Of a stretch of 64,000 bases of DNA, positions 36,351 to 57,985 are shown piece by piece. The translations under genes and the position numbers were made by a program. Positions within the stretch are counted from its first letter, which is position 1. Each line of letters starts with the position of its first letter. Origin of the DNA: an uncultured Candidatus Sumerlaeota bacterium (GTDB lineage: Bacteria; Sumerlaeota; Sumerlaeia; SLMS01); contig CAYTGM010000013.1 of NCBI GenBank assembly GCA_964437365.1, positions 22,815 through 86,814 of the forward strand, given 5' to 3'. The notes under the pieces are model-generated. The model searched no databases. It was not told the origin of the DNA and saw only the letters and a list, made by a program, of their open reading frames with translations.

Positions 36351-36423
36351 TCAACGCTGTATAGAACCAACTCTAAGTAAATGACAATTGACCCCTCGAA
36401 GCACTTGGGTCACCCTCTCACGC

Positions 36424-36604
36424 ATTGCTGGTATGCTTAGTTTCGACGAAGCATCTTGAGGGAATTCAGTGAAAATCTGAAACTGCCCCGCAGCGGTAAA
36501 CCGGAACGAACGTCGGAAGATACCACTGGAGATTGAAGGATTTCCGGGAAGGTTCGACAAGTAGGCTTTTTCTTCGCCGGTAAGTCCGAAGACCTGTCAG
36601 CAAT
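36424..36604 (+). promoter_or_regulatory. Cobalamin (B12) riboswitch
   Basis: AGGGAA, TTCAG-TGAAAAT-CTGAA (P4), ACTGCCCCGCAGCGGTAA, CCACTG, GGGAAGG and B12-box AAGTCCGAAGACCTG; P1 ATTGCTG/CAGCAAT. Confidence 0.93.
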
Positions 36605-36669
36605 ACTGAGCAGAACATTCCTCTGCCAGATAATCTATAGACTGCCTTCGAGGGAAAGGTCCGTCCCAC

Positions 36670-38764: not shown

Positions 38765-39670
38765 ATGATTTGTCGATTGTACTTTCTCGTTTTAACCTTC
38801 CTCCTGACAACTCAGACTCTACTTGGATCTGAATCAGGACAGTCCGATAGCCACGATACTAAAAGCACATCTACCCTAAGAATCATCTCTCTAACTCCAT
38901 CTATCACGGAAACGCTCTTCACCATAGGAGCGGGAGAACAGGTTATCGGCCGTACGAAGTATTGTCTATACCCTCCAGAGGCAAAGACCCTTCAGACACT
39001 TGGTGGTTATTTTGACCTTGAACTGGAAAAAGTGCTGAAAATGAAGCCCGACCTGGTGGTCATGATGAAAGGTGCTCACTCCGTCGAAGCGCAGCTTAAA
39101 CAATTGAACATCAACGTCCTTTCCTATCAAATGGAAAGTATCAGTGATATACGAGAAGTTATCAAGGAGCTCTCATCTGAACTACAGACTGGGGAAAACG
39201 GAGAAAGAGCACTTCGAAACTTCGACCAGGAGATCAACACAGTAAAAGAGAACTCGAAGTCAGTTTCGAAGAAAGGTCTTTCTGCGCTCCTTGTGATGGA
39301 CCGACAAATCGGTAACTTTGATGAAATGTTCAGCACAGGCCCAGGAACATTCCTCGAAGAGCTGATCCTTCTCATGGGGCTTTCAAATTCAACAAACGAC
39401 GCTGATGCCCCCTACCCTACTGTATCGCTCGAATCCATTATCAAGAAGAAGCCTGAAGTAATCATAGAAGTGCGTACTGGTACACTCAATAATATGAATA
39501 TATCAGAAGCTTCCGTTACGAGAGAATGGACTGACTTGTACGAGACCTTTGGATTAACACCTCCCAAAGTTATCCTTATCGAGGATCCTCACCTTACGAT
39601 TCCGGGACCGGGCATCACGGAGAGCCTCAAGTCGCTTCAACACAAGCTGAACGAAAAGCTTTCTCAATGA
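38765..39670 (+). CDS. BtuF-like ABC transporter substrate-binding protein
   Basis: RIISLTPSITETLFTIGAG, LELEKVLKMKPDLVV, SLESIIKKKPEVII, PGP; downstream of the B12 riboswitch. Confidence 0.88.
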   Translation: MICRLYFLVLTFLLTTQTLLGSESGQSDSHDTKSTSTLRIISLTPSITETLFTIGAGEQVIGRTKYCLYPPEAKTLQTLGGYFDLELEKVLKMKPDLVVMMKGAHSVEAQLKQLNINVLSYQMESISDIREVIKELSSELQTGENGERALRNFDQEINTVKENSKSVSKKGLSALLVMDRQIGNFDEMFSTGPGTFLEELILLMGLSNSTNDADAPYPTVSLESIIKKKPEVIIEVRTGTLNNMNISEASVTREWTDLYETFGLTPPKVILIEDPHLTIPGPGITESLKSLQHKLNEKLSQ

Positions 39671-40470
39671 AGGAGAGCGATTTCATCTATACTTTATCAG
39701 AAGTAAACTTCTGCTATCCTGGAACAGCAAGTAAAGCTCTTAGTGATATTGATCTAAACCTTCCGGCCGGTAAGTTTTTTGGAATCATCGGTCCCAACGG
39801 CTCAGGAAAATCAACGCTGCTGAAAATCTTGTCAGGTTGGAACCAACCGGACACAGGAAACGTTCTATATAGCCATAAACCCATTCAATCCTTTCAAAGA
39901 CGCCAACTTGCTTCTAGAATCTCTTTCCTGTCTCAATCAGAAACGCACCCTTTTGCCTATCGTGTAAAAGAGATCGTAGCGATGGGCCTTCTTCCCCAGC
40001 GATTAAACACCGGTAAGAAAGAAGAAAGAGCTCTTATCGATGAAGAGGCAATGATCTCTAAAATCCTGCAATGGGTCGGCGTGGAACAACATCTGGATCG
40101 ATATACAAGCAGTCTATCGGGCGGCGAAAGGCAGAGGGTTCTCCTAGCAAGAACTCTTGCTCAGAACCCGGAAACCCTGCTGCTGGATGAACCAACAACA
40201 TACCTTGATCCAGAGGGTCAGAAACGGTGCCTGTCATTGATAAGATCACTTGTGGATGAGGAACGATTGACGGCCATTGGAGTGTTTCATGATATTAATC
40301 TCGCATCTGCCTTCTGTGACCATCTTATTATGCTCAAGGAAGGCAAAGTCTTTCAATCTGGTCCTCTCAGTGAAGTACTAACAAAAGAGAACTTGAAAGG
40401 TCTCTTCCAGGTGGATTTTCATCTTAGCGAAGATTCCAAAGGTAGACCGTGGGCGAGGATGGAATTGTGA
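39667..40470 (+). CDS. BtuD/FecE-like ABC transporter ATP-binding protein
   Basis: GPNGSGKST, LSGGERQRV, LLLDEPT, HDINLA. Confidence 0.92.
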   Translation: MKESDFIYTLSEVNFCYPGTASKALSDIDLNLPAGKFFGIIGPNGSGKSTLLKILSGWNQPDTGNVLYSHKPIQSFQRRQLASRISFLSQSETHPFAYRVKEIVAMGLLPQRLNTGKKEERALIDEEAMISKILQWVGVEQHLDRYTSSLSGGERQRVLLARTLAQNPETLLLDEPTTYLDPEGQKRCLSLIRSLVDEERLTAIGVFHDINLASAFCDHLIMLKEGKVFQSGPLSEVLTKENLKGLFQVDFHLSEDSKGRPWARMEL

Positions 40471-41528
40471 CAATCCACACACGTATTTTTAAGGAAATCT
40501 CTTCCTCAACGGAGATGCCTGACCAGTCACCTGCGAAAAGGCAGGACGGCAATCGATTGGTTGTCTGTTTAGCCTCATTTGCCTTTCTACTTCTCGCTCT
40601 TGCGCTTTGTCCCTTTGTAGGATATGCAGATGTTGGTATCGACATTCTCTGGAATTCTGAGAATTACGCGGAAACAGACCGTCAGATCTTTTTTCTACTA
40701 CGCCTTCCAAGAGTTCTCTTTGCTGCTCTCGCTGGGGCCGCTCTCTCTATCGCCGGGGTTGTCTATCAGGCAACACTGAGAAACGATCTGGCAGAGCCAT
40801 TCTCCCTGGGAGTCGCAGGAGGTGCAGCCCTGGGCGCTGTTCTTGGTATGCAAGTCAGCTTTCTATCTTCCTATGCTGCTTCGGTCCCGCTTCTTGCCTT
40901 CACAGGATCAATAGCTGCTATATTTATCGTATACACAATTTCCATGAGGAGAGGTGGAACGCTTTCACCCGAAACACTCATTCTGGCCGGAGTTGCCCTG
41001 AACCTGTTCTTTGGAGCAATCATTCTTGTTGTACAGTATCTGACCGATCCGTATCAAACAGTCCAGATCATTCGCTGGATGATGGGTGGAATTCCAGTTG
41101 TCGGCAAAGCACAACTCTTTGTCGGTATCGCTATCCTTCTTGTTTCATGGCTCACGCTCATGACCCTTTCGAAACAAATCGATATACTGACCCTCGGCGA
41201 GTTTCCCGCTTTTCACTTGGGAGTGTCCGTAGGAAAACTACGCCTCATAACACTTACAATTGGGTCAGTTCTGACGGCAGCTGTTGTATCTGTGGCAGGA
41301 CCAATCGGATTTGTCGGGCTGATTATTCCTCATATCATGAGACGCATCGGCGGAGCGACTCACGGTTACCTGCTGATAGCTGCACCACTGGCCGGAGGGG
41401 CATTTCTTGTCTGTTGTGACACTCTTGCCAGGACACTCCTCGACGGAACCGAGTTACCAGTCGGCATTCTGACGGCAGCTCTCGGATCTCCATTCTTCAT
41501 TTGGATTCTCTGGAGGAAGAAAAAGTAA
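40449..41528 (+). CDS. BtuC/FecD-like ABC transporter permease (start may be ATG 40514)
   Basis: LRLPRV, QATLRNDLAEPFSLGVAGGA, GPIGFVGLIIPH, ELPVGILT. Confidence 0.92.
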   Translation: MGEDGIVTIHTRIFKEISSSTEMPDQSPAKRQDGNRLVVCLASFAFLLLALALCPFVGYADVGIDILWNSENYAETDRQIFFLLRLPRVLFAALAGAALSIAGVVYQATLRNDLAEPFSLGVAGGAALGAVLGMQVSFLSSYAASVPLLAFTGSIAAIFIVYTISMRRGGTLSPETLILAGVALNLFFGAIILVVQYLTDPYQTVQIIRWMMGGIPVVGKAQLFVGIAILLVSWLTLMTLSKQIDILTLGEFPAFHLGVSVGKLRLITLTIGSVLTAAVVSVAGPIGFVGLIIPHIMRRIGGATHGYLLIAAPLAGGAFLVCCDTLARTLLDGTELPVGILTAALGSPFFIWILWRKKK

Positions 41529-42694: not shown

Positions 42695-42980
42695 AACGGT
42701 TAAAACCGTGGGGGGATGGGGGAATATCAGGTGCGCAGGTTAAAACCCGCGCCTCGGCTAAAGCCTCGCTACGCTCGAAGTGAATAGCCCCTTGAAACTG
42801 TGCTGCGCGGAACAACAGCAGTTGCGAATCCTTAGAAATGAATCTGCGTCTCGGAATCACCTTCCATCATAAGGCCCCTCTCAACCCCTCCGAGCGAAGC
42901 GAGACTTTAGCCGAGGCTCGTACTTTAGTACGAGCACACCTCCCCGTCCCTCAACACCCCATCAACCGTTTCAACGGTTT
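42695..42980. repeat. Composite REP/REPIN-like element, copy A
   Basis: Outer hairpins AACGGT-TAAA-ACCGT and AACCGTT-TCA-ACGGTT enclose inverted REP units at 42731-42777 and 42891-42935. Confidence 0.85.
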
Positions 42981-43491
42981 CTAGATCCTCGAAGTACGCA
43001 CCTTCGAAGTCGTATGGAGCCTCATCCTCTTCAATGAAACCATCGCCCTCCGCTATATCTTTCAATCCAGCCCTTTCCATCATGATGACAAACTCTTCTC
43101 GAAAGGACAGATTTCGATGATGGACTTTCTGATTATCGATATACGAACACACCTGAGGTAACTTATCGTAAGAGACAGAAAAAACCGCATACGACCTCTG
43201 CCAGCGAAATTTTTCATGCGATATTTGATGCTTATTGATCCAATAAGAACTTGACCCTTTGAAGTACTTCACAAGTTCCTCAAGTGTATAGTTTGTTGGC
43301 ATATTAATGAGAATATGAACGTGATCCGGATTTACATAGAGCGTCAGAAGTTCAACCCCTTTCTCCTTCAGATATACCTGAAGAAAACCTGCTACTCGGC
43401 GCCCTCCTTCATCGTTTAGAGATGCACGGCGGTCTTTTGTCGACCAGACAAAGTGCTGGTAGGATTGAACATGGGTTCGTTTAGACATCAT
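42925..43491 (-). mobile_element. tnpA: IS200/IS605-type Y1 (HUH) transposase, RAYT-like
   Basis: HFVWSTK, DHVHIL (HUH), FKGSSS, WQRSYAVFSVS and YIDNQ..HH (catalytic Tyr); flanked by REP-like hairpins; no tnpB. Confidence 0.9.
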
Positions 43492-45171: not shown

Positions 45172-45834
45172 TTAGTTATTAGCCATACCAGCTTCGCTTG
45201 GAACTTCACCACCGGAGCGGATAATGTCACCACGGCTGATTGTTCCGTTTGTTGGGTCGTAAACACCCTCAACAATGTGTGAATCGGGCTGGTTACCAAC
45301 TGCCACGTTATAGACGCGCCAGTTAATCGCGTCCTGAAGCTTGTCTGGACCCAGACTCCAGGAAATCCAACCTGCGTAATCTTGTGGTGCTCCTGAACCG
45401 TAGTCCTGAGTGAAAGTCTGAAATGTCTGATAGCTGATATAGTCTTGATCATAAACGGTACCTGCGCCGGGAATACCTGGCGCGTTTGTAATCTGACCCT
45501 TTTCGATGAAGATATCGAGCATCATATCCACTGAAGTCAAATACGCGATGGGCGTCGTCAAACGATAGAGGCATTTGTTGGCTTCAAGATAGATACCACC
45601 AGACTGTCCCTGCCAGCTATAATGAGGTGGATACCGGTTATTATCAACAAAATAGGTTTCAATGCCGGTGGCCATAGACCGCATGTCAGCTTTCATCCGT
45701 GAGACTTTACTTCTTGTTTGAGCCTCAAGGAAGTTTGGAACTGCGATCGCAGCGAGAATGGCGATGATGGCTACAACGATGAGCAGTTCGATGAGCGTAA
45801 ACGCCTTGTTTGGTTTGGGGGTAAATGTACGCAC
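45172..45834 (-). CDS. Prepilin-type N-terminal cleavage/methylation domain protein
   Basis: NKA|FTLIELLIVVAIIAILAAIAVPNFLEAQTRSKVSRMKADMRS; C-terminal WSLGPD and YDPTNGTISRGDI. Confidence 0.92.
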   Translation of the reverse strand: MRTFTPKPNKAFTLIELLIVVAIIAILAAIAVPNFLEAQTRSKVSRMKADMRSMATGIETYFVDNNRYPPHYSWQGQSGGIYLEANKCLYRLTTPIAYLTSVDMMLDIFIEKGQITNAPGIPGAGTVYDQDYISYQTFQTFTQDYGSGAPQDYAGWISWSLGPDKLQDAINWRVYNVAVGNQPDSHIVEGVYDPTNGTISRGDIIRSGGEVPSEAGMANN

Positions 45835-46366: not shown

Positions 46367-47248
46367 GTGGCTCGACTGAACCGAAATAATAACCACCAAC
46401 CCACCCTTCGTCATGATCTCAGCTTTATCTCGCTGATCGATCTTCCAACATGGAGTACTGGTCCCATCAATCTGCCAGAAATAGAGCAGCTGCAGGCCAT
46501 TAAGGCAGCAGGATATGAAGGGGTGCAGGGAGCTGATGCAAAACTCGCCCGACAGGTTGGCCTTGTCCCTACCGCCATGGGAAACATCCAACTCCCCGGC
46601 CAGATGAAAGAGGTCTGTCTGAAACATCGTGATGAAGGATATGAATGCATCACGATCCATATGGGGAGCGGCCTTGAATCCGCCTCGGAAGCTGCCAGAT
46701 TGACGGAGGATGTGCTGAAAGCCTCTGTTGAAACAGGTTTTCCTGTCTATATTGAAACACACCGTGCAACACTGACTCAGGATATATGGCGCACTGTTGA
46801 ACTGATCAAAGAATTCCCTGAGATAGAATTAAACATCGATTTTTCCCACTGGTACTCAGGACTGGAAATGCCCAATGGAAATTGGGAGCGCAAAATGGAG
46901 TTTATGCAGCCAGTATTTGAACGGGCCGCATACATGCACGGTCGTATTGGAAATTCAAGCCACATGCAGGTAAATATTGGAGATGGTCAAGGCTTCGTTT
47001 TTGTAGAACATTTTCGGGACCTGTGGACACGAACTTTCAGAGCCTTTCTTGCATCAGCAAAGCCGGGCGACATTCTGCCTTTTGCACCGGAGTTACTTTG
47101 GCCCGGTATTTTCTACGCCAGAGAATTTCCAGATGAGAAGGGTCATCTTCGAGAAGAATCAGATCGATGGGAGCAGTCCCTGGTTTTACGGCAGATTGCT
47201 CAAGAGTGTTTTGATCAAGCTCAAGAATCACTCCAGCTAACCGCATAG
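46367..47248 (+). CDS. Xylose isomerase-like TIM-barrel protein
   Basis: AGYEGVQ, YIETHRATLTQD, DFSHW, HGRIG, PELL. Confidence 0.75.
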   Translation: MARLNRNNNHQPTLRHDLSFISLIDLPTWSTGPINLPEIEQLQAIKAAGYEGVQGADAKLARQVGLVPTAMGNIQLPGQMKEVCLKHRDEGYECITIHMGSGLESASEAARLTEDVLKASVETGFPVYIETHRATLTQDIWRTVELIKEFPEIELNIDFSHWYSGLEMPNGNWERKMEFMQPVFERAAYMHGRIGNSSHMQVNIGDGQGFVFVEHFRDLWTRTFRAFLASAKPGDILPFAPELLWPGIFYAREFPDEKGHLREESDRWEQSLVLRQIAQECFDQAQESLQLTA

Positions 47249-47273
47249 AGACAGGAAGAAGAAAGAAAGACTC

Positions 47274-48299
47274 ATGGCAGCAATTGCGATCGAAAAGCGC
47301 TATCTGAGCCTTGGACAGGAAAAGCTTTCTGTTTTTCCCATCGGACTGGGCACGGCGCTATTTGGATCAACTATCCCTGCAGATGATGCTTTTTCTATCA
47401 TGGACTGCTATATCGAGCAGGGGGGCAACTATATCGATACCGCCCATGTCTATGCGGACTGGATGCCCGAAGGCAAAGGAGCAAGTGAGAAAACCGTTGG
47501 GAGATGGCTGGCCCAGTCAGGGCTGCAAGATCAAGTGATCCTCGGAACGAAGGGTGGACACCCTCCCATCAATGATTTTTCGGTTTCGCGGATCAAACCA
47601 GAACTTATTAAGCAGGATCTGGAAGAAAGTCTGGAGCGATTGCAGGTTGATCATATTGATCTCTACTGGCTTCACCGCGATGATGCATCTGTCGGTGTTG
47701 ATGAACTGATAGATGCTTTAAATGATGCCATTGATGAAGGCAAGATCTCAGCGTTCGGCGGATCAAACTGGACAGGCCAACGTCTACACGAAGCAAATGT
47801 TTACGCTCACAAAAACGGGAAGGCTGGATTCATTGCAAGTCAGCCCGCATGGTCACTGGCATCCGCCAGACCCGAGGTACAGGGATCCATGGGAGGTTGT
47901 CTGTATATGACGAAAGACGAACTTGATTTTTATGAACAGAACAAACAGATGGTGGTGTTTGCATGGTCTGCTCAAGGTGGTGGTTTCTTCTCTCCCCGAC
48001 TGAACTGGTTTGATGAGGACAGGAGTGAAGAAATACCTGATCATTTAATTTCCACCTATAAGACGGAAGCGAATATGAAGAAGGTTAAGATACTCCAGAA
48101 GATGAGCGACACATCCGATCAGACCGTTGGCGAGCTTGCGCTGTCCTGGTTATTGAACCACCGGGTATCTCCGGTTGCCTTGATCGGCCCGAAATCCGTC
48201 GAGCAGCTGAGGAGCAGCCTGCGCTCCCTGGAGTATAATTGGGAAGGCGAGGATTGGCATCGTCTGGATTTGTTGCATTCAGATAAAGATTTTGGGTGA
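47274..48299 (+). CDS. Aldo/keto reductase
   Basis: IGLGT, GGNYIDTAHVY, TKGG, DHIDLYWLHRDD, GGSNW. Confidence 0.93.
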   Translation: MAAIAIEKRYLSLGQEKLSVFPIGLGTALFGSTIPADDAFSIMDCYIEQGGNYIDTAHVYADWMPEGKGASEKTVGRWLAQSGLQDQVILGTKGGHPPINDFSVSRIKPELIKQDLEESLERLQVDHIDLYWLHRDDASVGVDELIDALNDAIDEGKISAFGGSNWTGQRLHEANVYAHKNGKAGFIASQPAWSLASARPEVQGSMGGCLYMTKDELDFYEQNKQMVVFAWSAQGGGFFSPRLNWFDEDRSEEIPDHLISTYKTEANMKKVKILQKMSDTSDQTVGELALSWLLNHRVSPVALIGPKSVEQLRSSLRSLEYNWEGEDWHRLDLLHSDKDFG

Positions 48300-48393
48300 C
48301 ATCAAGCTTACTTAAAGGATAAAGGTTTATCTAAATACGGATAATTACCCCTCCAAATACATCATAAATCTCTCACACAAGAAGGATCTAAGC

Positions 48394-49788
48394 ATGGAAG
48401 ACAACAAGGAAATCAAACAGGAATCGGCTCAAAGCCACGACTTTTCGACGATCGAGGGCCTGAAAGAAAAGCTTTCCATGAGCCGAAGAACGTTTCTCGC
48501 CAACAGCATGATGGCAGGAGCGGCTCTTACAATGCCACGCTTCAGCGTCGGGCAAATGTCCTCGGCCAGTGATGAGATCCAGATCGGTCTCATCGGGGCA
48601 GGCAGCCAGGGTCGCGTTCTTATGAATGCTGTTTTGAAGATCCCCAACGTGCGCTTTAAAGCTGTTTGTGATATCTGGGAGTATTCGCAACTCTATGCTT
48701 CCAAGGTCCTTGAAAAATTTGATCAACCGGTCAACGTCTATGCACGCTATCAAGAGATGCTCGAGAAAGAAAATCTCGATGCGGTCCTGATTGCGACTCC
48801 TGACTGGCTCCATGCACCAATGACCGTTGATTGCTTGAAGGCTGGTATGGATGTCTATTGTGAGAAAGAGATGTCCAACACGGTTGAGGGCGCACAAAGT
48901 ATGGTCAAGGCAGCGCGCGAATCAGGGAAGCTTCTTCAGATCGGACACCAGCGCCGCTCAAACCCTCGCTATAAACATGCACTTAAGGTTATTACCAAAG
49001 ATAATCTTCTTGGAAGAATCACCACGATCAACGGTCAGTGGAACAGACCTGTTCAGCCATCAATAGGATGGCCCGAGAAATATACAATGGAAGACAGCTA
49101 CCTTCAACAGTTCGGCTACAAGAACATGGATCAGTTCAGAAACTGGCGATGGTACAAGAAGTATGCTGGCGGTCCCATCGTTGACCTTGGATCTCATCAG
49201 ATCGAAGTCTTCAACTGGTTTCTCGGAGCTAATCCAACATCAGTTATGGCGAGTGGTGGTATAGACTACTACGAAGATGGGCGTGAGTGGTACGATAATG
49301 TCATGACAATCTATAAGTATGATACAGATAAAGGTCCAGCGCGCGCTTTCTACCAGGTTCTAAACACAACCTCCTATGGCGGTTTTCATGAAACCTTCAT
49401 GGGCGACGAAGGCACCATGGTTATTTCGGAAGATAAATCGAAAGGCTATGTGTTCCGCGAAGCTCGTGCGAAACGTCGTGAATGGGAAGACCTTTCAGAG
49501 AAAGTTGATTCCATGGGTCGCGAAGCAATTGAACTCAAGATTGGCGAAACACGCCGTCAAACAGGTGAAGCATCTCCTGAAGTTCTTAAGGCTGAAGCAG
49601 ATCTGGAGAAACCGGAGCATCAGCCGCACCTTGAGAACTTCTTCGCAGCGATGCGTAAAGAAGAGGAGCTTAACTGCGACGCAGAAGTGGCTTACGAAAC
49701 TTGTGTAACGGTTCTCAAAGTAAATGAGGCCGTTAAATCCAAGTGCACCCTTGAGTTTGCTAAAGACGAGTTCCACGTTAAAGCCTGA
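48394..49788 (+). CDS. Gfo/Idh/MocA-family oxidoreductase with Tat signal
   Basis: SRRTFLA after a long n-region (alternative start ATG 48478); IGAGSQG, IATPDWLH, YCEKEM, DLGSHQ. Confidence 0.9.
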   Translation: MEDNKEIKQESAQSHDFSTIEGLKEKLSMSRRTFLANSMMAGAALTMPRFSVGQMSSASDEIQIGLIGAGSQGRVLMNAVLKIPNVRFKAVCDIWEYSQLYASKVLEKFDQPVNVYARYQEMLEKENLDAVLIATPDWLHAPMTVDCLKAGMDVYCEKEMSNTVEGAQSMVKAARESGKLLQIGHQRRSNPRYKHALKVITKDNLLGRITTINGQWNRPVQPSIGWPEKYTMEDSYLQQFGYKNMDQFRNWRWYKKYAGGPIVDLGSHQIEVFNWFLGANPTSVMASGGIDYYEDGREWYDNVMTIYKYDTDKGPARAFYQVLNTTSYGGFHETFMGDEGTMVISEDKSKGYVFREARAKRREWEDLSEKVDSMGREAIELKIGETRRQTGEASPEVLKAEADLEKPEHQPHLENFFAAMRKEEELNCDAEVAYETCVTVLKVNEAVKSKCTLEFAKDEFHVKA

Positions 49789-49815
49789 TCGACTATATCT
49801 TAAGAAGAGCCCTCC

Positions 49816-51696
49816 ATGCGCCTGCCACCCTTTGACTGCCTTACTTCGCTGCTTGTGATTCTGACATCATGGACCTTTGTATCAGCAAGTGAGACCGGCG
49901 GGCGCCTGGAAACGGGTAGCCAAAGCACCTTTATACACGAAATTGGAATTTATGATTCAGAAGGTGCGATTATAGACCCCGCCTCTGATTCCCCTTCACC
50001 ATTTTCCACCGAACAAACATGTGGGAAGTGCCACGACTATAAAGCTATCTCATCAGGATGGCATTTTAACAGTCGAATGGAGGAGGTTGATCATGGTCGC
50101 CCCGGTGAACCGTGGGTTATCACTGATGAAAAGTCGGCGACACAAATTCCCGTCTCTTACAGGAACTGGCCCGGTCTCTGGCAGCCAAAAGATATCGGGC
50201 TCTCCGATTGGGAATTCCTCCAGACATTTGGTCGTCATATGCCTGGTGGCACATTCAAAGACTCAGGTACACACGACCCTGAGGAATTCAAGGAGCTCTG
50301 GGAAGGAGCTGGTACCTACCAGATTGACTGCATGTCTTGCCATTCACTGGATCGGACACAAAATCAGACTCTCAGACATGATCAAATTGAAAAACACAAT
50401 CTCCAGTATATATCCATCACTACGATGGGAATAGGATCTGTTGAAGGAGCTATCAAAGACGCCGACTCAGGAGGCGGGTTAGACGAGTCTGATCCTTTCG
50501 CAGCCTTTGATCCTGCGTTTGAAGAAACGGCAGCAGGACCTGCCGCGTTATCGATTACTTATGACATGAGCAAGTTTGATGAAAATGACCGAACTTTCTT
50601 TGATGTCTCGAGGAAAGGCAAAATTGATAACTGTTTTTTCTGCCACAGCAACAGAACAATGTCCAATGGCAGCGCCACTCCTGAGTGGCACAATGACCAG
50701 GACGTTCATATCTCAGCTGGTCTTTCCTGTACCGATTGCCACCGCAACGGGATCGATCATGATATTGCTCGGGGTTATCTATACAACAGTGAAGAGGTCT
50801 CCATTTCAGAACTTTCACTCTCCTGTCAGGGTTGCCATTATGGAGTAGAGGAAGAAGCTGTCCCTACCTCGAACGGAATGGCGGGCAGGCTAGGTTCTCC
50901 CCTGCCAGCACACGCCGGGATCCCACCTATACACTTTGATGAAATGTCGTGTACTTCATGCCACTCTGGCCCATATCCGAAGAATGATCTGAGCGTCGTC
51001 CAAACATCTTTGGGACATGCCCTGGGTCTTGCGAAGTTCGCTAATGAAAGGTCACAGCTTCCTTTTGTTCAATATCCAGTCTATGCGCGTGGCCACGACG
51101 GAAAGATCGCTCCCCATAAGATTCTCTGGCCAGCATTCTGGGCCAGAATAAATGACAACGGCGAATCACTCCCCATACTTCCCTCTGAGTTAGCTCCTCA
51201 TCTGCCAGAAGAAGAACTCGACTTTCAGGATTTTATTAAAGCTGGGCTGAAAAACCTTTCAGAGAAAGATAAGGAGACTGGCTTTGCCTATATCGCAGGT
51301 GGAATGAAGTATACACTCGAAGGTGAAAGTCTGATTTCATCAGAAGATCCTACAGCGGAACCTTATCTCTGGGCTTTTGCTCATGATGTGCGACCAGCCA
51401 GTCAATCAATCGGCGCCAAGAGCTGCCAGGAGTGCCATTCACCGGACTCTCCCTTCCTGTTTGCCAGCTTCAGTTCTCTTTCGCCACGAAGCGATGCTCT
51501 GACAATAACGCGCAAGATGACGGACCTGATGAAGATAGACGAATCGGAACAACTTCGATTCGCTGGTACCTTTGCCTACAGACCAGTCTTTAAGGTCTTC
51601 CTAATCGCGATGATCACTTTGCTCTTTATTCTTTTCATTATGATTGCGGGACTGCTGGGGCACCGTCTATTTGAAGGAGGTCGTCGTTCGGTATGA
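49816..51696 (+). CDS. Membrane-anchored multiheme cytochrome c (7 CxxCH)
   Basis: Signal peptide; CGKCH, CMSCH, CFFCH, CTDCH, CQGCH, CTSCH, CQECH; C-terminal TM helix. Confidence 0.9.
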   Translation: MRLPPFDCLTSLLVILTSWTFVSASETGGRLETGSQSTFIHEIGIYDSEGAIIDPASDSPSPFSTEQTCGKCHDYKAISSGWHFNSRMEEVDHGRPGEPWVITDEKSATQIPVSYRNWPGLWQPKDIGLSDWEFLQTFGRHMPGGTFKDSGTHDPEEFKELWEGAGTYQIDCMSCHSLDRTQNQTLRHDQIEKHNLQYISITTMGIGSVEGAIKDADSGGGLDESDPFAAFDPAFEETAAGPAALSITYDMSKFDENDRTFFDVSRKGKIDNCFFCHSNRTMSNGSATPEWHNDQDVHISAGLSCTDCHRNGIDHDIARGYLYNSEEVSISELSLSCQGCHYGVEEEAVPTSNGMAGRLGSPLPAHAGIPPIHFDEMSCTSCHSGPYPKNDLSVVQTSLGHALGLAKFANERSQLPFVQYPVYARGHDGKIAPHKILWPAFWARINDNGESLPILPSELAPHLPEEELDFQDFIKAGLKNLSEKDKETGFAYIAGGMKYTLEGESLISSEDPTAEPYLWAFAHDVRPASQSIGAKSCQECHSPDSPFLFASFSSLSPRSDALTITRKMTDLMKIDESEQLRFAGTFAYRPVFKVFLIAMITLLFILFIMIAGLLGHRLFEGGRRSV

Positions 51697-52277
51697 TTGG
51701 ACTTCTTCTTTCCCTTCTTGCAGGTATACTGGCACTTGTTCTCTCGGTGCTCTTGTTTAAAAAAACGAACAGGGATTTGTTGAACACGCTCGGAATTTGC
51801 CTCGTTGGCTTCTGCGGCGCTTTGATGATGATCTCCGGATGGACAGGGTGGTCTGCAGAAGCGCTATATGGATCTAAGATGGGACATTGGGACATTATGC
51901 TGCATATCCCTTCAGGTTCTGCGCTCCTGGCTTCTGCATTTATTCTGACTCTTACTCTCCTTGTCTATAACCGGCGGTGCCAGAGTCAGGTAGAAAAGAA
52001 CGGGCAACCGAGAGCTCTGAAGTCAACGGCTCTGATATCTCTAAGTCTGCTCCTACTCTTTCTTTCACTGGCCACTCTCAGCATTCTGCTTGCCATGTTT
52101 CCAATATTCGGAACTCAAGGTCAGAAGCTCCTGTTTGAATTGCATGCTTTATCTGCAATTGCATCCATCATCATGTTTTCCCTGCTGTGCATCGTATTGT
52201 TCAAGCAGGGGTTTAAGACGACCATGTCAAACACTCTCACTCAAAATAGTAATCTCACTGAAGGAGAAGTCTCGTGA
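51693..52277 (+). CDS. Polytopic membrane protein, possible cytochrome b-like partner
   Basis: About 5 hydrophobic segments; His in DIMLH and FELH; ATGA-coupled to the cytochrome gene. Confidence 0.7.
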   Translation: MIGLLLSLLAGILALVLSVLLFKKTNRDLLNTLGICLVGFCGALMMISGWTGWSAEALYGSKMGHWDIMLHIPSGSALLASAFILTLTLLVYNRRCQSQVEKNGQPRALKSTALISLSLLLLFLSLATLSILLAMFPIFGTQGQKLLFELHALSAIASIIMFSLLCIVLFKQGFKTTMSNTLTQNSNLTEGEVS

Positions 52278-52993
52278 AGAAGACTCTTATTACAACTGCA
52301 TTCATTTTCTCTGCACTATCCATTTCTTCTGTATATGCGCAGGAAGAAACGGCTTCGGAAGCAAAAAACTACGAAAAGCCTGCTGCACCTGAAGGCCAGA
52401 AGGAACTTGAGCTTGAGCTGCCACAACCTCTCTTTGTAGGCACACCGCAGAACATCATGTCCGACAACCTTGAAGAAGCGAATATCCAAAGAGACCCGGT
52501 ATATATTCCAGAGGAAGCAGAACTACTCTCAGTAGACACATGGGTAACATCCAGTGATTCTGCACCGATCATCGGCGAACTGGAAATGGTAACGGATGGA
52601 GACAAAGACGGCAATGAAGGAAGCTACGTTGAGCTTGGACCAGGGAAACAGTGGATCCAGATTGAGCTTGATGAACCAGCTGAAATCCATGCGATCGCTA
52701 TCTGGCATTTCCATAGTCAGGCAAGAGCTTACCAGGACGTTGTGGTGCAGATTGCCTCAGACCCCGATATCCTGGAAAATGTATCCGTCCCATTCAATAA
52801 TGATCATGATAACAGCCTTGGCCTCGGAATCGGCAAAGACAAGGAATGGATTGAAACTTATGAAGGACGCATGATCGACGTTGACGGAGTAAAGGGTCAG
52901 TATATTAGGCTCTACAGCGATGGAAGCACATCCAACCCAATGAACCACTATATTGAAGTTGAGATTTACGGTGTTCCAGCAACGGATGAATGA
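52274..52993 (+). CDS. Secreted discoidin/F5-8 type C-like domain protein
   Basis: Signal peptide; VTDGDK, QWIQIEL, GQYIRLY, IEVEIYG. Confidence 0.72.
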   Translation: MKKTLITTAFIFSALSISSVYAQEETASEAKNYEKPAAPEGQKELELELPQPLFVGTPQNIMSDNLEEANIQRDPVYIPEEAELLSVDTWVTSSDSAPIIGELEMVTDGDKDGNEGSYVELGPGKQWIQIELDEPAEIHAIAIWHFHSQARAYQDVVVQIASDPDILENVSVPFNNDHDNSLGLGIGKDKEWIETYEGRMIDVDGVKGQYIRLYSDGSTSNPMNHYIEVEIYGVPATDE

Positions 52994-54615
52994 CAGATAG
53001 ATTAGACAGCAAAAGAGATTTTGAAAGGTGGGCCTCTGTGGGGGCCCTTCTTTTCATTTTAATCCCTCTCGCTGTCTGGTTACGCCTTCCAGGCCTTTCG
53101 CAGCGCCCCATGCATACAGATGAGGCTGTTCAGGGGTGGAAGACAGTCGCACTCATCGAAGAGAACTCATACAAGTATGACCCAACGGAGCATCATGGCC
53201 CCCTTCTTTACTATTATACAGCATCTCTCTTAAAACTATCTGGAGCGAGTGATTCAACACAGCCACAAAAAGAACACCTCAGGCTGGCAATTCTCATTCC
53301 CTCAATACTTCTTGTTTTTCTTCCTTATCTTATTCCACGTGTAACGGGATATGCAGCCCTCATTTCATCAACAATGTTGGCCGTATCACCCATGATTGTA
53401 TTTTACTCGACTTACTATATCCAAGAAATTCTCTTTGTTCTCTTCAGCTGGCTTTTCGTAATCAGTCTATACCTGTTACTCCAGCCTTCAAGTTCAAGAA
53501 AGCAAATCTATGGAGGCCTTGTTTTCAGCTCTTTTATTCTGGGAGGAGTCATTTGTTTAAAGGAGACCTTTGTGTTACTCCTTCTATCAACAGTGTCTGT
53601 TGTTGCTTTACAACTCCTGCTTTTCAGCTCCCGTAGAAAACTTTATCAGAAGTTTATGCGACGCATAGGAATCGGTCTGCCAATCGTCTTCATGATCATT
53701 CCGTCCCTGCTCATGGTCTTTTTATTCTACAGTAGCTTTGGTAGCAATTTAGCCGGAATTTGGGATTTTATCACAAGCTGGACAACCTACCTTGAACGAG
53801 CGGGCGGGGCTGGAAGCGTAGCTGATCACACACAACCCTGGTGGTTCTATGTGCAAAGAACTTTGTATTTCAGTTCAGGCAATGGAATCAGCTGGTCTGA
53901 GTGGCCGGTCTATGTAATTCTGGCCAGTGGAAGTGTGTGGCTTATTCTCTCAAAACGAAAAGATCATAGAACGCTCTTTAACTCCCTGGGAATTCTAGGC
54001 ATATCCAGTTTACTGTTTCTTCTATACAGCTTGATCCCCTACAAAACTCCCTGGCTGACCTTAAATTTTCATGTGGGCTTTATTCTCTCGATTGCTGGAC
54101 TACTTTCTGTGAGCAGGATCTCGATTACTGCAAAGGGCGTCGTTACTCTCGCAGCTTGCGGAGCTCTGATCATCTTTCTTGTTCCATTAGCTCAACGCAC
54201 AAACGCGACATACTTCTCTACGGACCAGCGAAATCCCTGGGTCTATGCACACAGTGTTCCAGCAGTTGAGAAACTTTCGGATCGTATTCATTCCCTCTCA
54301 GCTTTTCAGAAACAGGTTTCCAACAACAATCAGGAACTGACTGTTATTGTCATTGCAGCTGATTACTGGCCACTCCCCTGGTACTTGCGAGACATTGAAC
54401 AAACGGGCTACTGGAATACGATGCTGGAAGATCTTCCTGTGTCGGAAATCATCGTCGCCTCTGCAGAGTATGAAGGCGACATCGAAGAACAACAGGGAAG
54501 AGAATACATCTCCTCTTTCTACGGTATTTTGCCTGAGAGACCAGTCCTCCTCATGGTGGAGAAGAAGCTTTGGCAATCCTGGCTGGACTCGCAATCCAGA
54601 GAAATGAAGAAGTGA
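52990..54615 (+). CDS. PMT-like (GT-C) membrane glycosyltransferase, TIGR03663/Agl23-like
   Basis: MHTDEAVQG, YKYDPTEHHGPLLYY, YYIQE, PYKTPW, DYWPLPWYLR; many TM helices. Confidence 0.75.
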   Translation: MTDRLDSKRDFERWASVGALLFILIPLAVWLRLPGLSQRPMHTDEAVQGWKTVALIEENSYKYDPTEHHGPLLYYYTASLLKLSGASDSTQPQKEHLRLAILIPSILLVFLPYLIPRVTGYAALISSTMLAVSPMIVFYSTYYIQEILFVLFSWLFVISLYLLLQPSSSRKQIYGGLVFSSFILGGVICLKETFVLLLLSTVSVVALQLLLFSSRRKLYQKFMRRIGIGLPIVFMIIPSLLMVFLFYSSFGSNLAGIWDFITSWTTYLERAGGAGSVADHTQPWWFYVQRTLYFSSGNGISWSEWPVYVILASGSVWLILSKRKDHRTLFNSLGILGISSLLFLLYSLIPYKTPWLTLNFHVGFILSIAGLLSVSRISITAKGVVTLAACGALIIFLVPLAQRTNATYFSTDQRNPWVYAHSVPAVEKLSDRIHSLSAFQKQVSNNNQELTVIVIAADYWPLPWYLRDIEQTGYWNTMLEDLPVSEIIVASAEYEGDIEEQQGREYISSFYGILPERPVLLMVEKKLWQSWLDSQSREMKK

Positions 54616-54618
54616 TCG

Positions 54619-55587
54619 ATGAGTGTGAATGCTCAAAATAGAGGCGAGGGATGGTATAGATATAGCCATCAGGCCATGGCCACAGAATTCACAATTCTTA
54701 TATCGCATGCCTCAAAGGACCACGCCAGACAAGCTGCAAGAGCAGCGTTTGAACTTCTGGATAAACTTGAATCCGAGATGAGTCGTTATCGATATGCAAG
54801 TGATATACGGCGACTCGAAAAAGCTCCAGAAGGTACATGGGTCACGGTAGGGCTTGATACTTGCCTGTGCGTGATGAAGGGTGTACTGGCCGGTGAAATC
54901 ACTTCTGACATTTTCAATATATGCGTTGGACCGCTCGTAGATTTCTGGAAAGAGACGGATCAACCTCTCAACGATCAACAGGCGATTCAGCTCCAGCAAG
55001 TTCGATTGCTCTGTCAGACCACGAACCTTTTAATAGATCCTGACCGGTCTCGACTATTGAAAAAAGTGGAGGGAGTAAAGATTGACCTGGGAGGTATTGG
55101 AAAAGGCCATGCGCTTGATCGCCTGGTAACATTCCTGAAAGAGGATTGGGGAATCGCGGATGGGATTCTTGATAGTGGCGACAGCTCTGTGCTTGTTTGG
55201 AACGACAACACAACAGTTCAAGCAGATCCCTGGTCTTTCTCCATGATTAACCCTCATGACGAGAGCAAGTTACTTGGCCGAATTCAACTCAGGCAAGGAT
55301 CCGTTAGCGGGTCTGGTACTTATAGAAAAGGGCAGCATATCATTGATCCAGAGACCGGCAAACCAGTCAGTCCAAAGTTCGCCTGCTGGGCATACGCACC
55401 TGAAGCTTCGTGGAGCGATGTTCTCTCGACGGCCGCGATGCTCTGTGATTCAACAGTTCTCGCGTCTGCTGTGCACGAATTGCCTGATACCGGAGTGTTG
55501 AGAATTCCTCTCGAGGAGATCGGAGAAGTGATGGACACAGACAAGATCGAAATCATCGGAAATTTCCCTGAGTTCAAGACCACCTGA
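54619..55587 (+). CDS. apbE: FAD:protein FMN transferase
   Basis: AMATEF, IDLGGIGKG, HIIDPETG, DVLSTA. Confidence 0.88.
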   Translation: MSVNAQNRGEGWYRYSHQAMATEFTILISHASKDHARQAARAAFELLDKLESEMSRYRYASDIRRLEKAPEGTWVTVGLDTCLCVMKGVLAGEITSDIFNICVGPLVDFWKETDQPLNDQQAIQLQQVRLLCQTTNLLIDPDRSRLLKKVEGVKIDLGGIGKGHALDRLVTFLKEDWGIADGILDSGDSSVLVWNDNTTVQADPWSFSMINPHDESKLLGRIQLRQGSVSGSGTYRKGQHIIDPETGKPVSPKFACWAYAPEASWSDVLSTAAMLCDSTVLASAVHELPDTGVLRIPLEEIGEVMDTDKIEIIGNFPEFKTT

Positions 55588-55797: not shown

Positions 55798-56841
55798 ATG
55801 AATGTAAAACTGAAAGAGAAGCCGCATATACGTTTTAATGCTTTGTCCGGTGAATGGATTTTAGTCAGCCCCCACAGACTTAAGCGTCCATGGCAAGGAA
55901 AGCAGGAAGAAGTTCAGCCTGATACACGTCCTCAGTATGATCCCAAGTGTTATCTTTGTCCCGGCAATGAACGTTCCGGTGGCGAGCAAAACCCTAAGTA
56001 CGAAGAGACCTTCTGCTTTACTAATGACTTCGCCGCTCTTCTTCCCGAAGGAGATTCGGAAGAGATTGAGGAACACGAGCTTCTAAAAGCTCAGACTCTC
56101 AGTGGCATCTGCCGAGTCATCTGTTTCTCACCGCGTCACGACTTAACAATTCCTCGTCTATCGCGAGAAGAAATTGGAAGAGTGATTCAAACCTGGCAGA
56201 GTGAATTCAAAGAACTCTCTGCGCGGGATGATATCAGCTATGTGACGATCTTCGAAAACAAAGGGGCGATCATGGGCTGTAGTAATCCACATCCCCACGG
56301 TCAGATCTGGGCGACACAGATTGTTCCAATGGAGCCGATGAAAGAAGATGTCCAGCTTCGTAACCATTTCGAGAAGCACGGAAATACCCTTCTGGAAGAT
56401 TATATAGCTGTTGAGAAAGAAAAGAACGAGCGTATAGTTGTTGAGAATGAGACCTGGATTGCCCTCGTTCCTTACTGGGCCAAATGGCCGTATGAGACGA
56501 TTGTCATTCCTAAGAGCCCGAAGAAAAATGTACTGGAACTCTCAGAACAGGAAGAAACCGATCTGGCAGATATTCTGAAAGTCCTGACAACAAAGTACGA
56601 CAATCTATTTACCTGCTCCTTCCCTTACACGATGGGATTCCATCAGGCACCGTGTGATGGGGAAGAATATCCTCACTGGCATATGCACCTTCATTTCTAT
56701 CCACCACTTCTAAGATCTGCAACAGTACAGAAATTCATGGTTGGCTTTGAAATGCTGGCCTGCCCTCAGCGTGATATCACAGCAGAGATGGCTGCTGACA
56801 CCATCAAGAATCTATCTGATACCCATTACCTGGAGAAATAA
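55798..56841 (+). CDS. galT: Galactose-1-phosphate uridylyltransferase
   Basis: [33 protein letters not shown]. Confidence 0.96.
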
Positions 56842-56845
56842 GAGC

Positions 56846-57985
56846 GTGCAAGATATCGTATTAAATGCCTATAGAGATAAATATGCGATCGACCCATCAT
56901 TCGTTTCAAGAGGGCCGGGACGCGTAAATCTTATCGGAGAGCACACTGACTATAACGATGGGTTTGTGTTTCCGATGGCGATAGAGAGGGCTTCATGGAT
57001 TGCCTTCACGCCTCGAGAAGACTCTATCGTTGAAATCACATCTCTCCTTCACAAGCAAACCATTTCGATCGATCTTGAAAATCTGGAAAAAGAAAATGGT
57101 TGGGGCGAGTATATAAAGGGAGTCGCCTTTGCTCTGAAGCAACGTGGCTACGCGCTCAAAGGTTTTAATGGAATTGTGACAGGAAATGTGCCTCTCGGAT
57201 CTGGCCTTTCTTCATCGGCCGCTTTTGAATTGGCTCTCGCTCATGTCTTTGCGGTTTCCTCCAATCTTTCTATAGACGGTAAAGAGATGGCACTTATTGG
57301 GCAGGAAGCGGAGAACAACTGGGTAGGAGTGAGTTGTGGCATCATGGACCAACTCGTCTCTTCGCTTGGTGAAGAAGGTAAGGCGATCCTCCTTGATTGT
57401 CGTTCTTTAGAATGTAAATCTGCTCCCCTGCCAGACAATGTCAGAGTCGTCATCCTTGATACGATGACCCGTCGCGAGCTTCATAACTCTGCCTATAACG
57501 AAAGACGTTCAGAATGTGAAGAAGGGGCAAAGACTCTTGGCTATAAGGCACTCCGTGACGTTCCCGAGTCAGAGATTTCAACATTGGAAGAAAAGCTATC
57601 AGGCAATGTTCTCAAGCGAGCTCGCCACGTCATTACAGAATGCTATCGAACTTTGAAAGCTGCAGAGGTTTTGAATCAAGGTGATGCGAAAGCCTTTGGC
57701 GAACTCATGGACGAAAGCCATGAAAGCCTTCGTGATGATTTCGAGGTTTCATCTGAGGCTCTGAATACCATTGTTGAGATTGCGCGAAGTCAGACCGGTT
57801 GTCTTGGAGCACGAATGACCGGTGCTGGCTTTGGTGGATGCGCGGTTGCTCTTGTCGAGGCAAAGAATGTAGATACATTCATCGAAGGCGTTAAGTCGTA
57901 TTATAAATCAAAGACTGATCTGGATGCAGACATCTTCAGTTCGACTCCTGCGGCTGGTGCAGGCATCATCTGGACGAAAGGCTAA
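56846..57985 (+). CDS. galK: Galactokinase
   Basis: PGRVNLIGEHTDYNDG, PLGSGLSSSAA, GARMTGAGFGG. Start GTG 56846 follows the galT stop. Confidence 0.95.
   Translation: MQDIVLNAYRDKYAIDPSFVSRGPGRVNLIGEHTDYNDGFVFPMAIERASWIAFTPREDSIVEITSLLHKQTISIDLENLEKENGWGEYIKGVAFALKQRGYALKGFNGIVTGNVPLGSGLSSSAAFELALAHVFAVSSNLSIDGKEMALIGQEAENNWVGVSCGIMDQLVSSLGEEGKAILLDCRSLECKSAPLPDNVRVVILDTMTRRELHNSAYNERRSECEEGAKTLGYKALRDVPESEISTLEEKLSGNVLKRARHVITECYRTLKAAEVLNQGDAKAFGELMDESHESLRDDFEVSSEALNTIVEIARSQTGCLGARMTGAGFGGCAVALVEAKNVDTFIEGVKSYYKSKTDLDADIFSSTPAAGAGIIWTKG

Follow-up and report, generated by a model that had tools for sequence, protein, structure and literature searches.

Formate dehydrogenase-N (FdnGHI) and [NiFe]-hydrogenase-1 (HyaABC) are built on one plan, in which a catalytic subunit exported by the twin-arginine translocation (Tat) pathway is combined with a C-terminally anchored electron wire and a PF01292-type cytochrome b. 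Acetic acid bacteria and their relatives have membrane-bound sugar dehydrogenases of the flavoprotein-cytochrome c and quinoprotein types, such as those for fructose, sorbitol and gluconate and the flavin adenine dinucleotide (FAD)-dependent glucoside 3-dehydrogenase. These enzymes also oxidise their substrates in the periplasm, use Tat export and pass electrons through a multihaem cytochrome c to quinone. Among the known periplasmic enzymes of the Gfo/Idh/MocA family, bound NAD(P)H is recycled through a second substrate or the keto-intermediate, and we know of none that is linked to a chain of cytochromes. Tat-exported Gfo/Idh/MocA oxidoreductases are numerous in Planctomycetota, Verrucomicrobiota and their relatives, and to our knowledge the periplasmic re-oxidation of the tightly bound NAD(P)H in such enzymes has so far remained unexplained. 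Here we describe a gene cluster in a stretch of 64,000 nucleotides (nt) from an uncultured Candidatus Sumerlaeota bacterium (GenBank assembly GCA_964437365.1, contig CAYTGM010000013.1, positions 22,815 to 86,814; hereafter the window). Its genes at 48394-52277, for a Tat-signal Gfo/Idh/MocA dehydrogenase (Gfo), a seven-haem cytochrome c and an FdnI-like cytochrome b, probably encode a periplasm-facing, membrane-anchored sugar, glycoside or polyol dehydrogenase:quinone oxidoreductase, accompanied by an accessory maturation set.

One member of the accessory set is a homologue of ApbE, the FAD:protein flavin mononucleotide (FMN) transferase. The described ApbE-dependent extracytosolic flavinylation systems include NQR, RNF, NosR, PplA, DUF2271 and DUF3570 (PMC8238504, Meheust et al. 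2021). An [S/T]GA[S/T] site is common to all known ApbE substrates (PMC12052999, PMC8238504). Cytosolic ApbEs are known as well (PMC12052999), and orphan ApbEs with unknown substrates remain (PMC8238504). The main text of the 2021 survey contains no mention of Gfo proteins, multihaem cytochromes or glycosyltransferases (PMC8238504).

The dehydrogenase and its two cytochromes

An earlier note on this DNA, made from the sequence alone, had described eight genes on one strand between 46367 and 55587. All eight open reading frames (ORFs) were found on the + strand, separated by junctions of, in order, +25, +94, +27, -4 (ATGA), -4 (GTGA), -4 (ATGA) and +3 nt. The close spacing of the last five junctions was thereby confirmed, including the ATGA coupling of the cytochrome gene to that of a small membrane protein. 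Six of the eight genes, encoding Gfo, cytochrome c, cytochrome b, a discoidin-like protein, a glycosyltransferase of the GT-C fold and ApbE, constitute the conserved module.

The proposed periplasmic catalytic subunit (48394-49788, +) is a Tat-signal Gfo/Idh/MocA dehydrogenase of the NAD(P) type with 464 amino acids (aa). Three Pfam families were matched above the cut-off, namely PF01408 with 73.7, PF02894 with 50.2 and PF22725 with 48.7 bits. The N-terminus displays the twin-arginine motif SRRTFL followed by a hydrophobic stretch. Of 54 orthologues, 50 have an RR motif, and conservation extends to the Rossmann and EK-motif regions. The protein is thus predicted to be a Tat-exported oxidoreductase with an NAD(P)-binding Rossmann domain and a C-terminal alpha/beta domain. 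Its relatives in the PDB include inositol dehydrogenases, DgpA, GFOR and glucuronide-3-dehydrogenase. Comparison with NCBIfam equivalog models gave 98.7 bits for inositol 2-dehydrogenase (cut-off 355), 87.6 bits for the glycoside 3-dehydrogenase of the BT_2158 family (cut-off 750) and 56.7 bits for levoglucosan dehydrogenase (cut-off 650). Because all these scores lie far under the cut-offs, no substrate can be assigned to the enzyme.

The proposed electron wire is encoded 27 nt downstream (49816-51696, +; 626 aa). It has an N-terminal signal-like segment, exactly seven CxxCH motifs (at C69, C172, C273, C305, C337, C379 and C537) and a single C-terminal hydrophobic helix at about residues 586-621, so that both the seven motifs and the C-terminal anchor noticed earlier were found. 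An alignment of 31 homologues with 36-43% identity showed that all seven CxxCH motifs are invariant, together with exactly seven other histidines (H41, H83, H298, H315, H366, H373 and H523). Judged from this alignment, the invariance of these motifs and histidines is far beyond chance, and seven CxxCH motifs plus seven invariant histidines fit seven predicted bis-His haems. Searches of Pfam and NCBIfam revealed local, motif-level matches to named multihaem families, and no curated family reached its cut-off. None of the families compared (c7/c3, NrfB, MtrC/MtrF, DmsE, NapC/NrfH and the octahaem Ttr type) was matched over the whole protein, and no single stretch passed by itself, with scores far under the cut-offs for the DmsE, ExtM and octahaem models of NCBIfam. 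Likewise, a Foldseek search of the PDB with a haem-free AlphaFold2 (AF2) model (predicted local distance difference test score, pLDDT, 76.6) returned no fold match at E <= 0.001.

The third redox gene (51693-52277, +) encodes a protein of 194 aa with about five hydrophobic segments, the proposed quinone-facing subunit. The window protein alone gave no Pfam match. PF01292, however, was matched by 32 of 37 orthologues, with a best E-value of 2.1e-21, and a family profile aligned over residues 7-177 with FdnI, the cytochrome b556 subunit of formate dehydrogenase-N from E. coli (1kqf_C; E = 2.4e-11). By this homology the protein is an FdnI-type cytochrome b. Of its three histidines (at positions 65, 71 and 151), H71 and H151 are conserved, and in the profile alignment they match His57 and His155 of FdnI, which we take, from the published structure, to be the ligands of the periplasm-side haem bP. 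H71 and H151 are therefore the predicted ligand pair of a periplasm-side haem b. Hydropathy and the positive-inside rule place both at the periplasmic ends of helices. The earlier observation of a membrane protein with about five transmembrane (TM) segments and two histidines in or near helices was thus correct, H71 and H151 being conserved and lying inside helices. Among 72 members of the family, the TM4 histidine (the H151 column) is present in all and the TM2 histidine (the H71 column) in 70. All four FdnI histidines were found in 7 members, three in 39, where the TM1 histidine is mostly replaced by Tyr, and the bP pair only in 24, among them the window protein. The window protein has Ile and Leu at the positions of His18 and His169, the haem bC ligands of FdnI.

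At the TM1 haem bC position (His18), 45 of the 72 homologues have Tyr instead of His, and the equivalent of His169 is often kept. From this pattern, the inner haem seems to be either ligated by His and Tyr or lost.

The two cytochromes are also joined physically. In cytochrome variants of about 780-850 aa, a cytochrome b domain is fused to the C-terminus (hhalign 99.2%, E = 1.2e-19). Such fusions are carried by five of the loci analysed below (L027, L032, L039, L062 and L081) and by two further entries (P0060 and P0066), and they provide a Rosetta-stone link between the two genes. In a profile comparison, the anchor helix of the cytochrome c aligned with an extra N-terminal helix of the free cytochrome b.

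Distribution and gene order

A homologue search covering 5.8 billion proteins revealed more than 1,459 homologues of the cytochrome c, of about 610-660 aa, the best of which is only 43% identical to the window copy; none of these more than 1,459 sequences carries a functional name. In a scan of one genome per GTDB species, cytochrome loci were confirmed in at least 551 species genomes. The family occurs in Planctomycetota (Phycisphaerae, Sedimentisphaerales, Pirellulales, Planctomycetales and Gimesia) and also in Verrucomicrobiota, Kiritimatiellota, Calditrichota, KSB1, Sumerlaeota/BRC1, Omnitrophota, Acidobacteriota and others. Carriers in Marinimicrobia and on one Nitrospiraceae-labelled contig were added by direct look-up.

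To compare neighbourhoods, ORFs were called in 86 related loci and classed with profiles seeded from the window proteins. As fusions had merged some profiles, hits to GT-C and ApbE, and to cytochrome b and cytochrome c, were separated by domain tables. The Gfo gene lies immediately upstream of the cytochrome gene in 56 of 68 loci. A cytochrome b gene follows immediately downstream in 66 of 76 loci and is fused to the cytochrome gene in five more. The order Gfo, cytochrome c, cytochrome b is kept in more than ten phylum-level lineages. Accessory genes were counted within about 9 kb of the cytochrome gene in the 43 loci with enough flanking sequence: ApbE is present in 33, the discoidin-like gene in 30 and GT-C in 28, all three occur together in 27 loci from distant phyla, and ApbE occurs without GT-C in six. 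The conservation of the neighbourhood in relatives, which the earlier note had named as a check, is thus evident from the recurrence of the cluster across phyla and from fusions between the two cytochromes and between GT-C and ApbE.

Other genes recur around the module. These encode 3keto-disac_hyd/DUF1080, ThuA and AP_endonuc_2 proteins, extra Gfo paralogues, MFS, NCS1 and ABC sugar transporters, FGGY kinase and glycoside hydrolases. Such sugar-related neighbours place the module in a context of sugar or glycoside catabolism.

In three Verrucomicrobiota loci (L043, L044 and L076) the module is kept as one block in a changed order. The ApbE gene lies directly upstream of those for Gfo, cytochrome c and cytochrome b, and is itself preceded by a discoidin-like ORF in L043 and L044 and by a GT-C ORF in L044 and L076.

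The accessory genes

Directly after the cytochrome b gene follows one for a secreted discoidin-like (F5/8 type C-like) protein of 239 aa (52274-52993, +). Its matches to PF22633 (25.9 vs 27.8 bits, E = 1.5e-5) and PF00754 (21.0 vs 28.2 bits, E = 3.8e-4) are under threshold, and the same weak matches recur in its orthologues. The family is strongly conserved, with the motifs LPKPxFxGTP, TDGDK and NNDxDNS shared by 48 sequences, and its gene is always located directly upstream of the GT-C gene.

The GT-C fold glycosyltransferase (52990-54615, +; 541 aa) consists of about 11 TM helices and a C-terminal soluble domain and matched TIGR03663 with 157.3 bits (NCBIfam cut-off 126.25). A Foldseek search with its AF2 model (pLDDT 89.9) identified ArnT (5ezm; E = 2.6e-8, TM-score 0.58) as the best match, followed by Pmt4, AglB, ALG12 and ALG9. 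Loop 1, the first on the outer side, contains an R-P-x-H-x-D-E motif whose residues R39, P40, H42, D44 and E45 are invariant in 40 sequences; the motif was also found in 41 locus homologues. YKTPW is invariant and DYWPLPWYLR near-invariant. The helices assigned by DSSP and the charge distribution point to a topology like that of ArnT and PMT, in which the chain starts on the inside, crosses the membrane with 11 TM helices and ends in a periplasmic C-terminal domain.

In about 20 related loci, a convergent gene for a GT2 family glycosyltransferase of about 245 aa starts less than 100 bp from the end of the ApbE gene. Over its full length this GT2 resembles PpgS, dolichyl-P-hexose transferase and ArnC, but scores under their cut-offs. 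No GT2 of this accessory type was detected in the window at E < 1e-10, where galT and galK occupy the position downstream of ApbE instead. The galT gene (NF008724, 526 bits) and a galK-like ORF lie at 55798-57985 (+), 210 nt after the ApbE gene. As listed, the galK ORF starts with TTG at 56741 and shares 101 nt with galT; this start probably lies too far upstream.

The last gene of the module (54619-55587, +) encodes an ApbE-family FAD:protein FMN transferase homologue of 322 aa, with 134.9 bits for PF02424 and TM1553 as the best PDB match, followed by ApbEs. Forty-two cluster ApbEs share the motifs DLGGIGKG, SGSG..QHIIDP (with the His of HIIDP) and DxLSTA, which the window protein also has. 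The window ApbE and 44 of the 46 cluster ApbEs lack an N-terminal hydrophobic segment and show neither signal peptide nor lipobox. In most of the 150 best ApbE representatives at 50% identity, the domain begins within the first 30 residues. As the protein has no signal, any flavinylation by it should not be assumed to be extracytoplasmic.

A second, off-module ApbE of the lipoprotein type, with a signal peptide and a Cys lipobox, was found in two loci (L029, 14787-15911; L041, 3870-4916), so that in some genomes the signal-less ApbE of the cluster evidently coexists with a canonical, exported one.

GT-C is the only fusion partner of the cluster ApbE; fusions of ApbE to Gfo or to either cytochrome were not found in the sequences analysed. 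The GT-C-ApbE fusions form more than 115 distinct 90% clusters, in which ApbE follows the C-terminus of GT-C through a polar linker without an extra helix. ApbE-bearing proteins of 435-530 aa represent truncated versions of them. An origin of the fusions as assembly artefacts was rejected, given the more than 115 clusters, identities down to 39% and their occurrence on megabase contigs. Where GT-C and ApbE are separate genes, the start of ApbE mostly overlaps with, or directly adjoins, the 3' end of GT-C (typically as ATGA), and in 26 of 32 such loci the two frames differ. In the window (54613-54621) GT-C and ApbE are in the same frame and are separated by TGA and one Ser codon (AAG AAG TGA TCG ATG). 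Readthrough of this TGA would yield a GT-C-ApbE fusion of the kind that many Planctomycetota normally have. Readthrough or frameshifting as a general route to fusion was rejected, since 26 of 32 loci have ApbE in another frame and no common slippery site was found; in the window it may nevertheless operate.

Extent of the module and other features of the window

The two genes upstream of Gfo are peripheral neighbours. The first (46367-47248, +) encodes a TIM-barrel protein, weakly similar to xylose isomerases, that matched PF01261 (AP_endonuc_2) with 22.5 bits, under the Pfam cut-off of 31.1. The second (47274-48299, +) encodes a clear aldo/keto reductase (PF00248, 180.8 bits) and is followed by a gap of 94 nt before the Gfo gene. 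Phmmer searches detected no homologues of either protein across the 86 related loci, which places both outside the conserved module; AP_endonuc_2 proteins other than this one occur near the module in other loci. The eight-gene module proposed earlier is thereby reduced to six genes that recur as a cluster. A consensus scan for promoters and terminators, which would indicate independent transcription of the genes, gave no excess over chance (13 vs 12.1 expected, and 11 vs 9.2).

Further upstream, the window contains a cobalamin riboswitch (36412-36615, +; Rfam RF00174, 99 bits) in front of an unannotated ORF of 469 aa (36670-38079). This is followed by genes for a BtuF/C/D-like ABC transporter: Peripla_BP_2 (38765-39670), ABC_tran (39667-40470) and FecCD (40449-41528). 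An IS200-like Y1 transposase (42925-43491, -; PF01797, E = 2.5e-28) precedes about 600 nt (43.5-44.1 kb) with short overlapping ORFs only. A prepilin-type N-terminal methylation protein (45172-45834, -) showed weak matches to Verrucomicrobia/Chthoniobacter 'cassette' proteins C and D, a hint that the window may stem from the PVC (Planctomycetota, Verrucomicrobiota, Chlamydiota) group.

Proposed function and alternative explanations

We propose the following course of events. The Gfo protein, exported in a folded state by Tat with its NAD(P) bound, would act as the catalytic subunit. The bis-His seven-haem cytochrome c, held to the membrane by one C-terminal helix, would serve as the electron wire, and the FdnI-type cytochrome b would take up the electrons at its periplasm-side haem and pass them to quinone. 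As the window cytochrome b keeps the outer haem site only, quinone would be reduced near the periplasmic face and the reaction would be electroneutral; relatives with all four histidines could run a full redox loop. The discoidin-like protein, GT-C and ApbE, together with GT2 in many relatives, would form a maturation module for the complex. The most plausible task of ApbE is the covalent attachment of an FMN, through which the two-electron hydride of the bound NAD(P)H would reach the haems one electron at a time. Such a flavin would be mechanistically appealing because haems take up single electrons and bound NAD(P)H gives a hydride. For the GT2/GT-C pair, the most plausible role is the transfer of sugar from a lipid-linked donor to a component in the periplasm. 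We infer the substrate class, the direction of electron flow and quinone as the acceptor from gene content and homology, and the targets of ApbE and GT-C more weakly.

If this reading is true, the module represents a new entry of sugar electrons into the respiration of abundant environmental glycan degraders, and the cytochrome c/cytochrome b chain in at least 551 species genomes offers a testable answer to the question of how periplasmic NAD(P)H is re-oxidised. The module also defines a structurally uncharacterised family of seven-haem cytochromes and gives a first functional context for bacterial TIGR03663.

Among the proteins of the cluster, Gfo is the preferred (unproven) target of ApbE, because no other is folded in the cytoplasm as well as in the periplasm. 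Alternatively, ApbE itself may be exported by hitch-hiking on a Tat substrate, or the acceptor may be a non-canonical one. In a bolder version, which we put forward tentatively as a possibility, the module would be the missing respiratory outlet of Tat-exported Gfo/Idh/MocA enzymes and would at the same time contain a new type of ApbE flavin transferase acting at a non-canonical site. ApbE, either tethered to the periplasmic C-terminus of GT-C or made as a signal-less protein, would then transfer FMN onto the Tat substrate itself or even onto a glycan installed by GT-C, and this FMN would convert two-electron into one-electron transfer between bound NAD(P)H and the seven-haem wire. This would amount to a new, coupled glycosylation-flavinylation route of maturation and to a new class of respiratory dehydrogenase, widespread in the PVC group, in phyla related to the FCB (Fibrobacterota, Chlorobiota, Bacteroidota) group and in candidate phyla.

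Several observations weigh against the proposed dehydrogenase:quinone oxidoreductase and its maturation set; some of them bear on the alternatives discussed below. First, the window cytochrome b holds a single predicted haem site. The cytochrome b-like quinone interface suggested by the earlier note therefore holds with respect to the FdnI homology at the haem bP positions, but with at most one haem, not two. Second, a flavinylation site is missing. Scans for D-x-x-[ST]-G-A-[ST] and the looser [ST]G[AGS][ST], which covered every cluster protein, all ORFs of the 86 loci and a six-frame translation of the window, revealed no conserved site in any cluster protein. The absence of the canonical motif from the neighbours had already been noted from the window and now extends to its six-frame translation. 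An SGAS string at residues 84-87, which among these proteins only the window GT-C has, was considered as a target and rejected, as it is not conserved in the alignment. The other [ST]GA[ST] strings of the window belong to a Walker-A loop or to unannotated ORFs, and none follows an Asp at the canonical position. Inspection of conserved Ser/Thr residues in Gfo, cytochrome b, cytochrome c and the discoidin-like protein revealed nothing resembling an ApbE site. The idea of an FMN bridge is thus left without an identified acceptor. Third, the compartment of ApbE is ambiguous: the fused form is predicted to be periplasmic, whereas the unfused form looks cytoplasmic. From the dedicated extracytoplasmic flavinylation proposed for this locus, the membership of ApbE in the cluster can be retained; its extracytoplasmic action should not be taken for granted, as the signal peptide is missing.

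The accessory genes and the redox genes might also be two separate neighbouring systems, namely a respiratory Gfo-cytochrome c-cytochrome b system and a general envelope glycosylation/flavinylation set for other periplasmic proteins, such as the many Tat-exported Gfo paralogues of these phyla. We consider this unlikely, although it has points in its favour. The discoidin/GT-C pair was found without cytochrome or ApbE in one locus (L088) and next to a different Tat-type Gfo in another (L089), so that of a dedicated glycosylation the presence of GT-C in the cluster is confirmed and its restriction to cytochrome loci is not. In eight of the 43 cytochrome loci, all three accessory genes are absent from the surrounding 9 kb or so. 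The redox half and the accessory half of the cluster are often separated by genes for transporters, for a kinase and for a cytoplasmic Gfo, and the redox subunits have no flavinylation acceptor motif. On the other hand, all three accessory genes accompany the cytochrome in the 27 loci from distant phyla, and in the window the cytochrome b, discoidin-like and GT-C genes are chained by 4-nt overlaps. Moreover, ApbE stays with the Gfo, cytochrome c and cytochrome b genes in four loci in which the discoidin-like and GT-C genes are missing (L005, L012, L019 and L049), and is found directly upstream of Gfo in the three rearranged Verrucomicrobiota loci.

A reversed or differently ended chain appears still less probable. 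Electrons could flow from quinol through cytochrome b and cytochrome c to a periplasmic acceptor, for example to bound NAD(P)+ for the reduction of a keto-sugar or to an unrelated oxidant, or sugar electrons could leave the chain towards soluble cytochromes or terminal oxidases. Anchored multihaem cytochromes of the NapC/NrfH/CymA type usually oxidise quinol. A cytochrome b with the outer haem only, as in the window, suits either direction, and a quinone site is not identifiable from its sequence, which also counts among the points against our proposal. However, cytochromes b of the FdnI/HyaC type serve Tat-exported dehydrogenases as quinone reductases, and the architecture of the module matches theirs. 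The catabolic gene context (glycoside hydrolases, sugar transporters and kinase) and the seven cytochrome b members with all four FdnI histidines likewise argue for electron flow towards quinone.

Finally, Gfo enzymes may be redox-neutral and need no external acceptor (GH109, 3-keto-glycoside pathway), which is a further point against our proposal. The Gfo protein would then be an NAD-dependent glycosidase or isomerase of the GH109/GH4 or 3-keto-glycoside type, and the cytochromes would only rescue or poise its bound cofactor, for instance by re-oxidising NADH trapped after product release, and carry no main respiratory flux. Relatives in the PDB and NCBIfam such as DgpA, glucuronide-3-dehydrogenase and the BT_2158 family speak for this reading, as do the 3keto-disac_hyd and AP_endonuc_2 genes of the 3-keto-glycoside route that recur nearby. 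We regard it as very improbable: all equivalog scores are far under the cut-offs, and a dedicated seven-haem wire with its cytochrome b, kept beside one particular Gfo clade in at least 551 species genomes, would be an expensive repair device.

Comparison with known systems

The literature searched contains no description of this module. Full-text searches for Gfo/Idh/MocA proteins with multihaem cytochromes or with ApbE returned no reports, and those on the function of bacterial TIGR03663 (or Agl23) revealed nothing relevant and no characterised bacterial member.

The proposed function is analogous to that of the sugar dehydrogenases of the acetic acid bacteria type. In those enzymes, catalysis depends on FAD (GMC type) or pyrroloquinoline quinone, and a three-haem cytochrome reduces ubiquinone directly, whereas the module has an NAD(P)-type Gfo, an unrelated seven-haem cytochrome and a separate cytochrome b. 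Searches with Pfam, NCBIfam and Foldseek detected no homology between the two. With Zymomonas GFOR, the BT_2158 family, DgpA and glucuronide-3-dehydrogenase the catalytic subunit shares the Gfo fold and its Rossmann domain, and with periplasmic Gfo enzymes Tat export with a bound cofactor and a context of 3keto-disac_hyd, ThuA and AP_endonuc_2 genes.

Similar to ApbE flavinylation systems, the module has ApbE in an extracytoplasmic electron-transfer cluster; in those systems it is sometimes fused to its partner, as with DUF2271 (PMC8238504). It differs from them by the lack of a conserved [S/T]GA[S/T] site, by an ApbE without signal peptide or lipobox and by GT-C as the sole fusion partner. 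An ApbE clade without a substrate motif and with an unprecedented GT-C fusion partner bears on the orphan-ApbE problem (PMC8238504). The pairs ArnC/ArnT, Ppm1/Pmt, PpgS/Rv3779 and GtrB/GtrV share with the module the GT-C fold and the acidic loop-1 motif, and in about 20 loci a small GT2 that resembles polyprenyl-phosphate sugar synthases is adjacent. In contrast to these pairs, the GT-C of the module is obligately paired with a discoidin-like protein and often fused to ApbE, and the window copy has no GT2 beside it. The accessory set of ApbE, GT-C, discoidin-like protein and GT2 is the most novel and least understood part of the module.

The closest resemblance in overall plan is to FdnGHI and HyaABC. 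The cytochrome b of the module is homologous to FdnI and retains the haem bP ligands, and the anchor of its cytochrome c parallels that of FdnH. The catalytic subunit is a Gfo/Idh/MocA nicotinoprotein, where FdnGHI and HyaABC have a Mo or NiFe enzyme, and the wire is a seven-haem cytochrome c, where FdnGHI has an iron-sulphur protein (FdnH, four clusters). Compared with FdnI, most cytochromes b of the module lack the TM1 histidine, the window protein lacks both bC ligands, and there is an extra N-terminal TM helix. The ApbE, GT-C and discoidin-like genes have no counterpart in FdnGHI and HyaABC. The core is best described as a respiratory module composed of a Tat-exported dehydrogenase, an anchored wire and a cytochrome b, in which both the class of the catalytic subunit and the cytochrome family are new.

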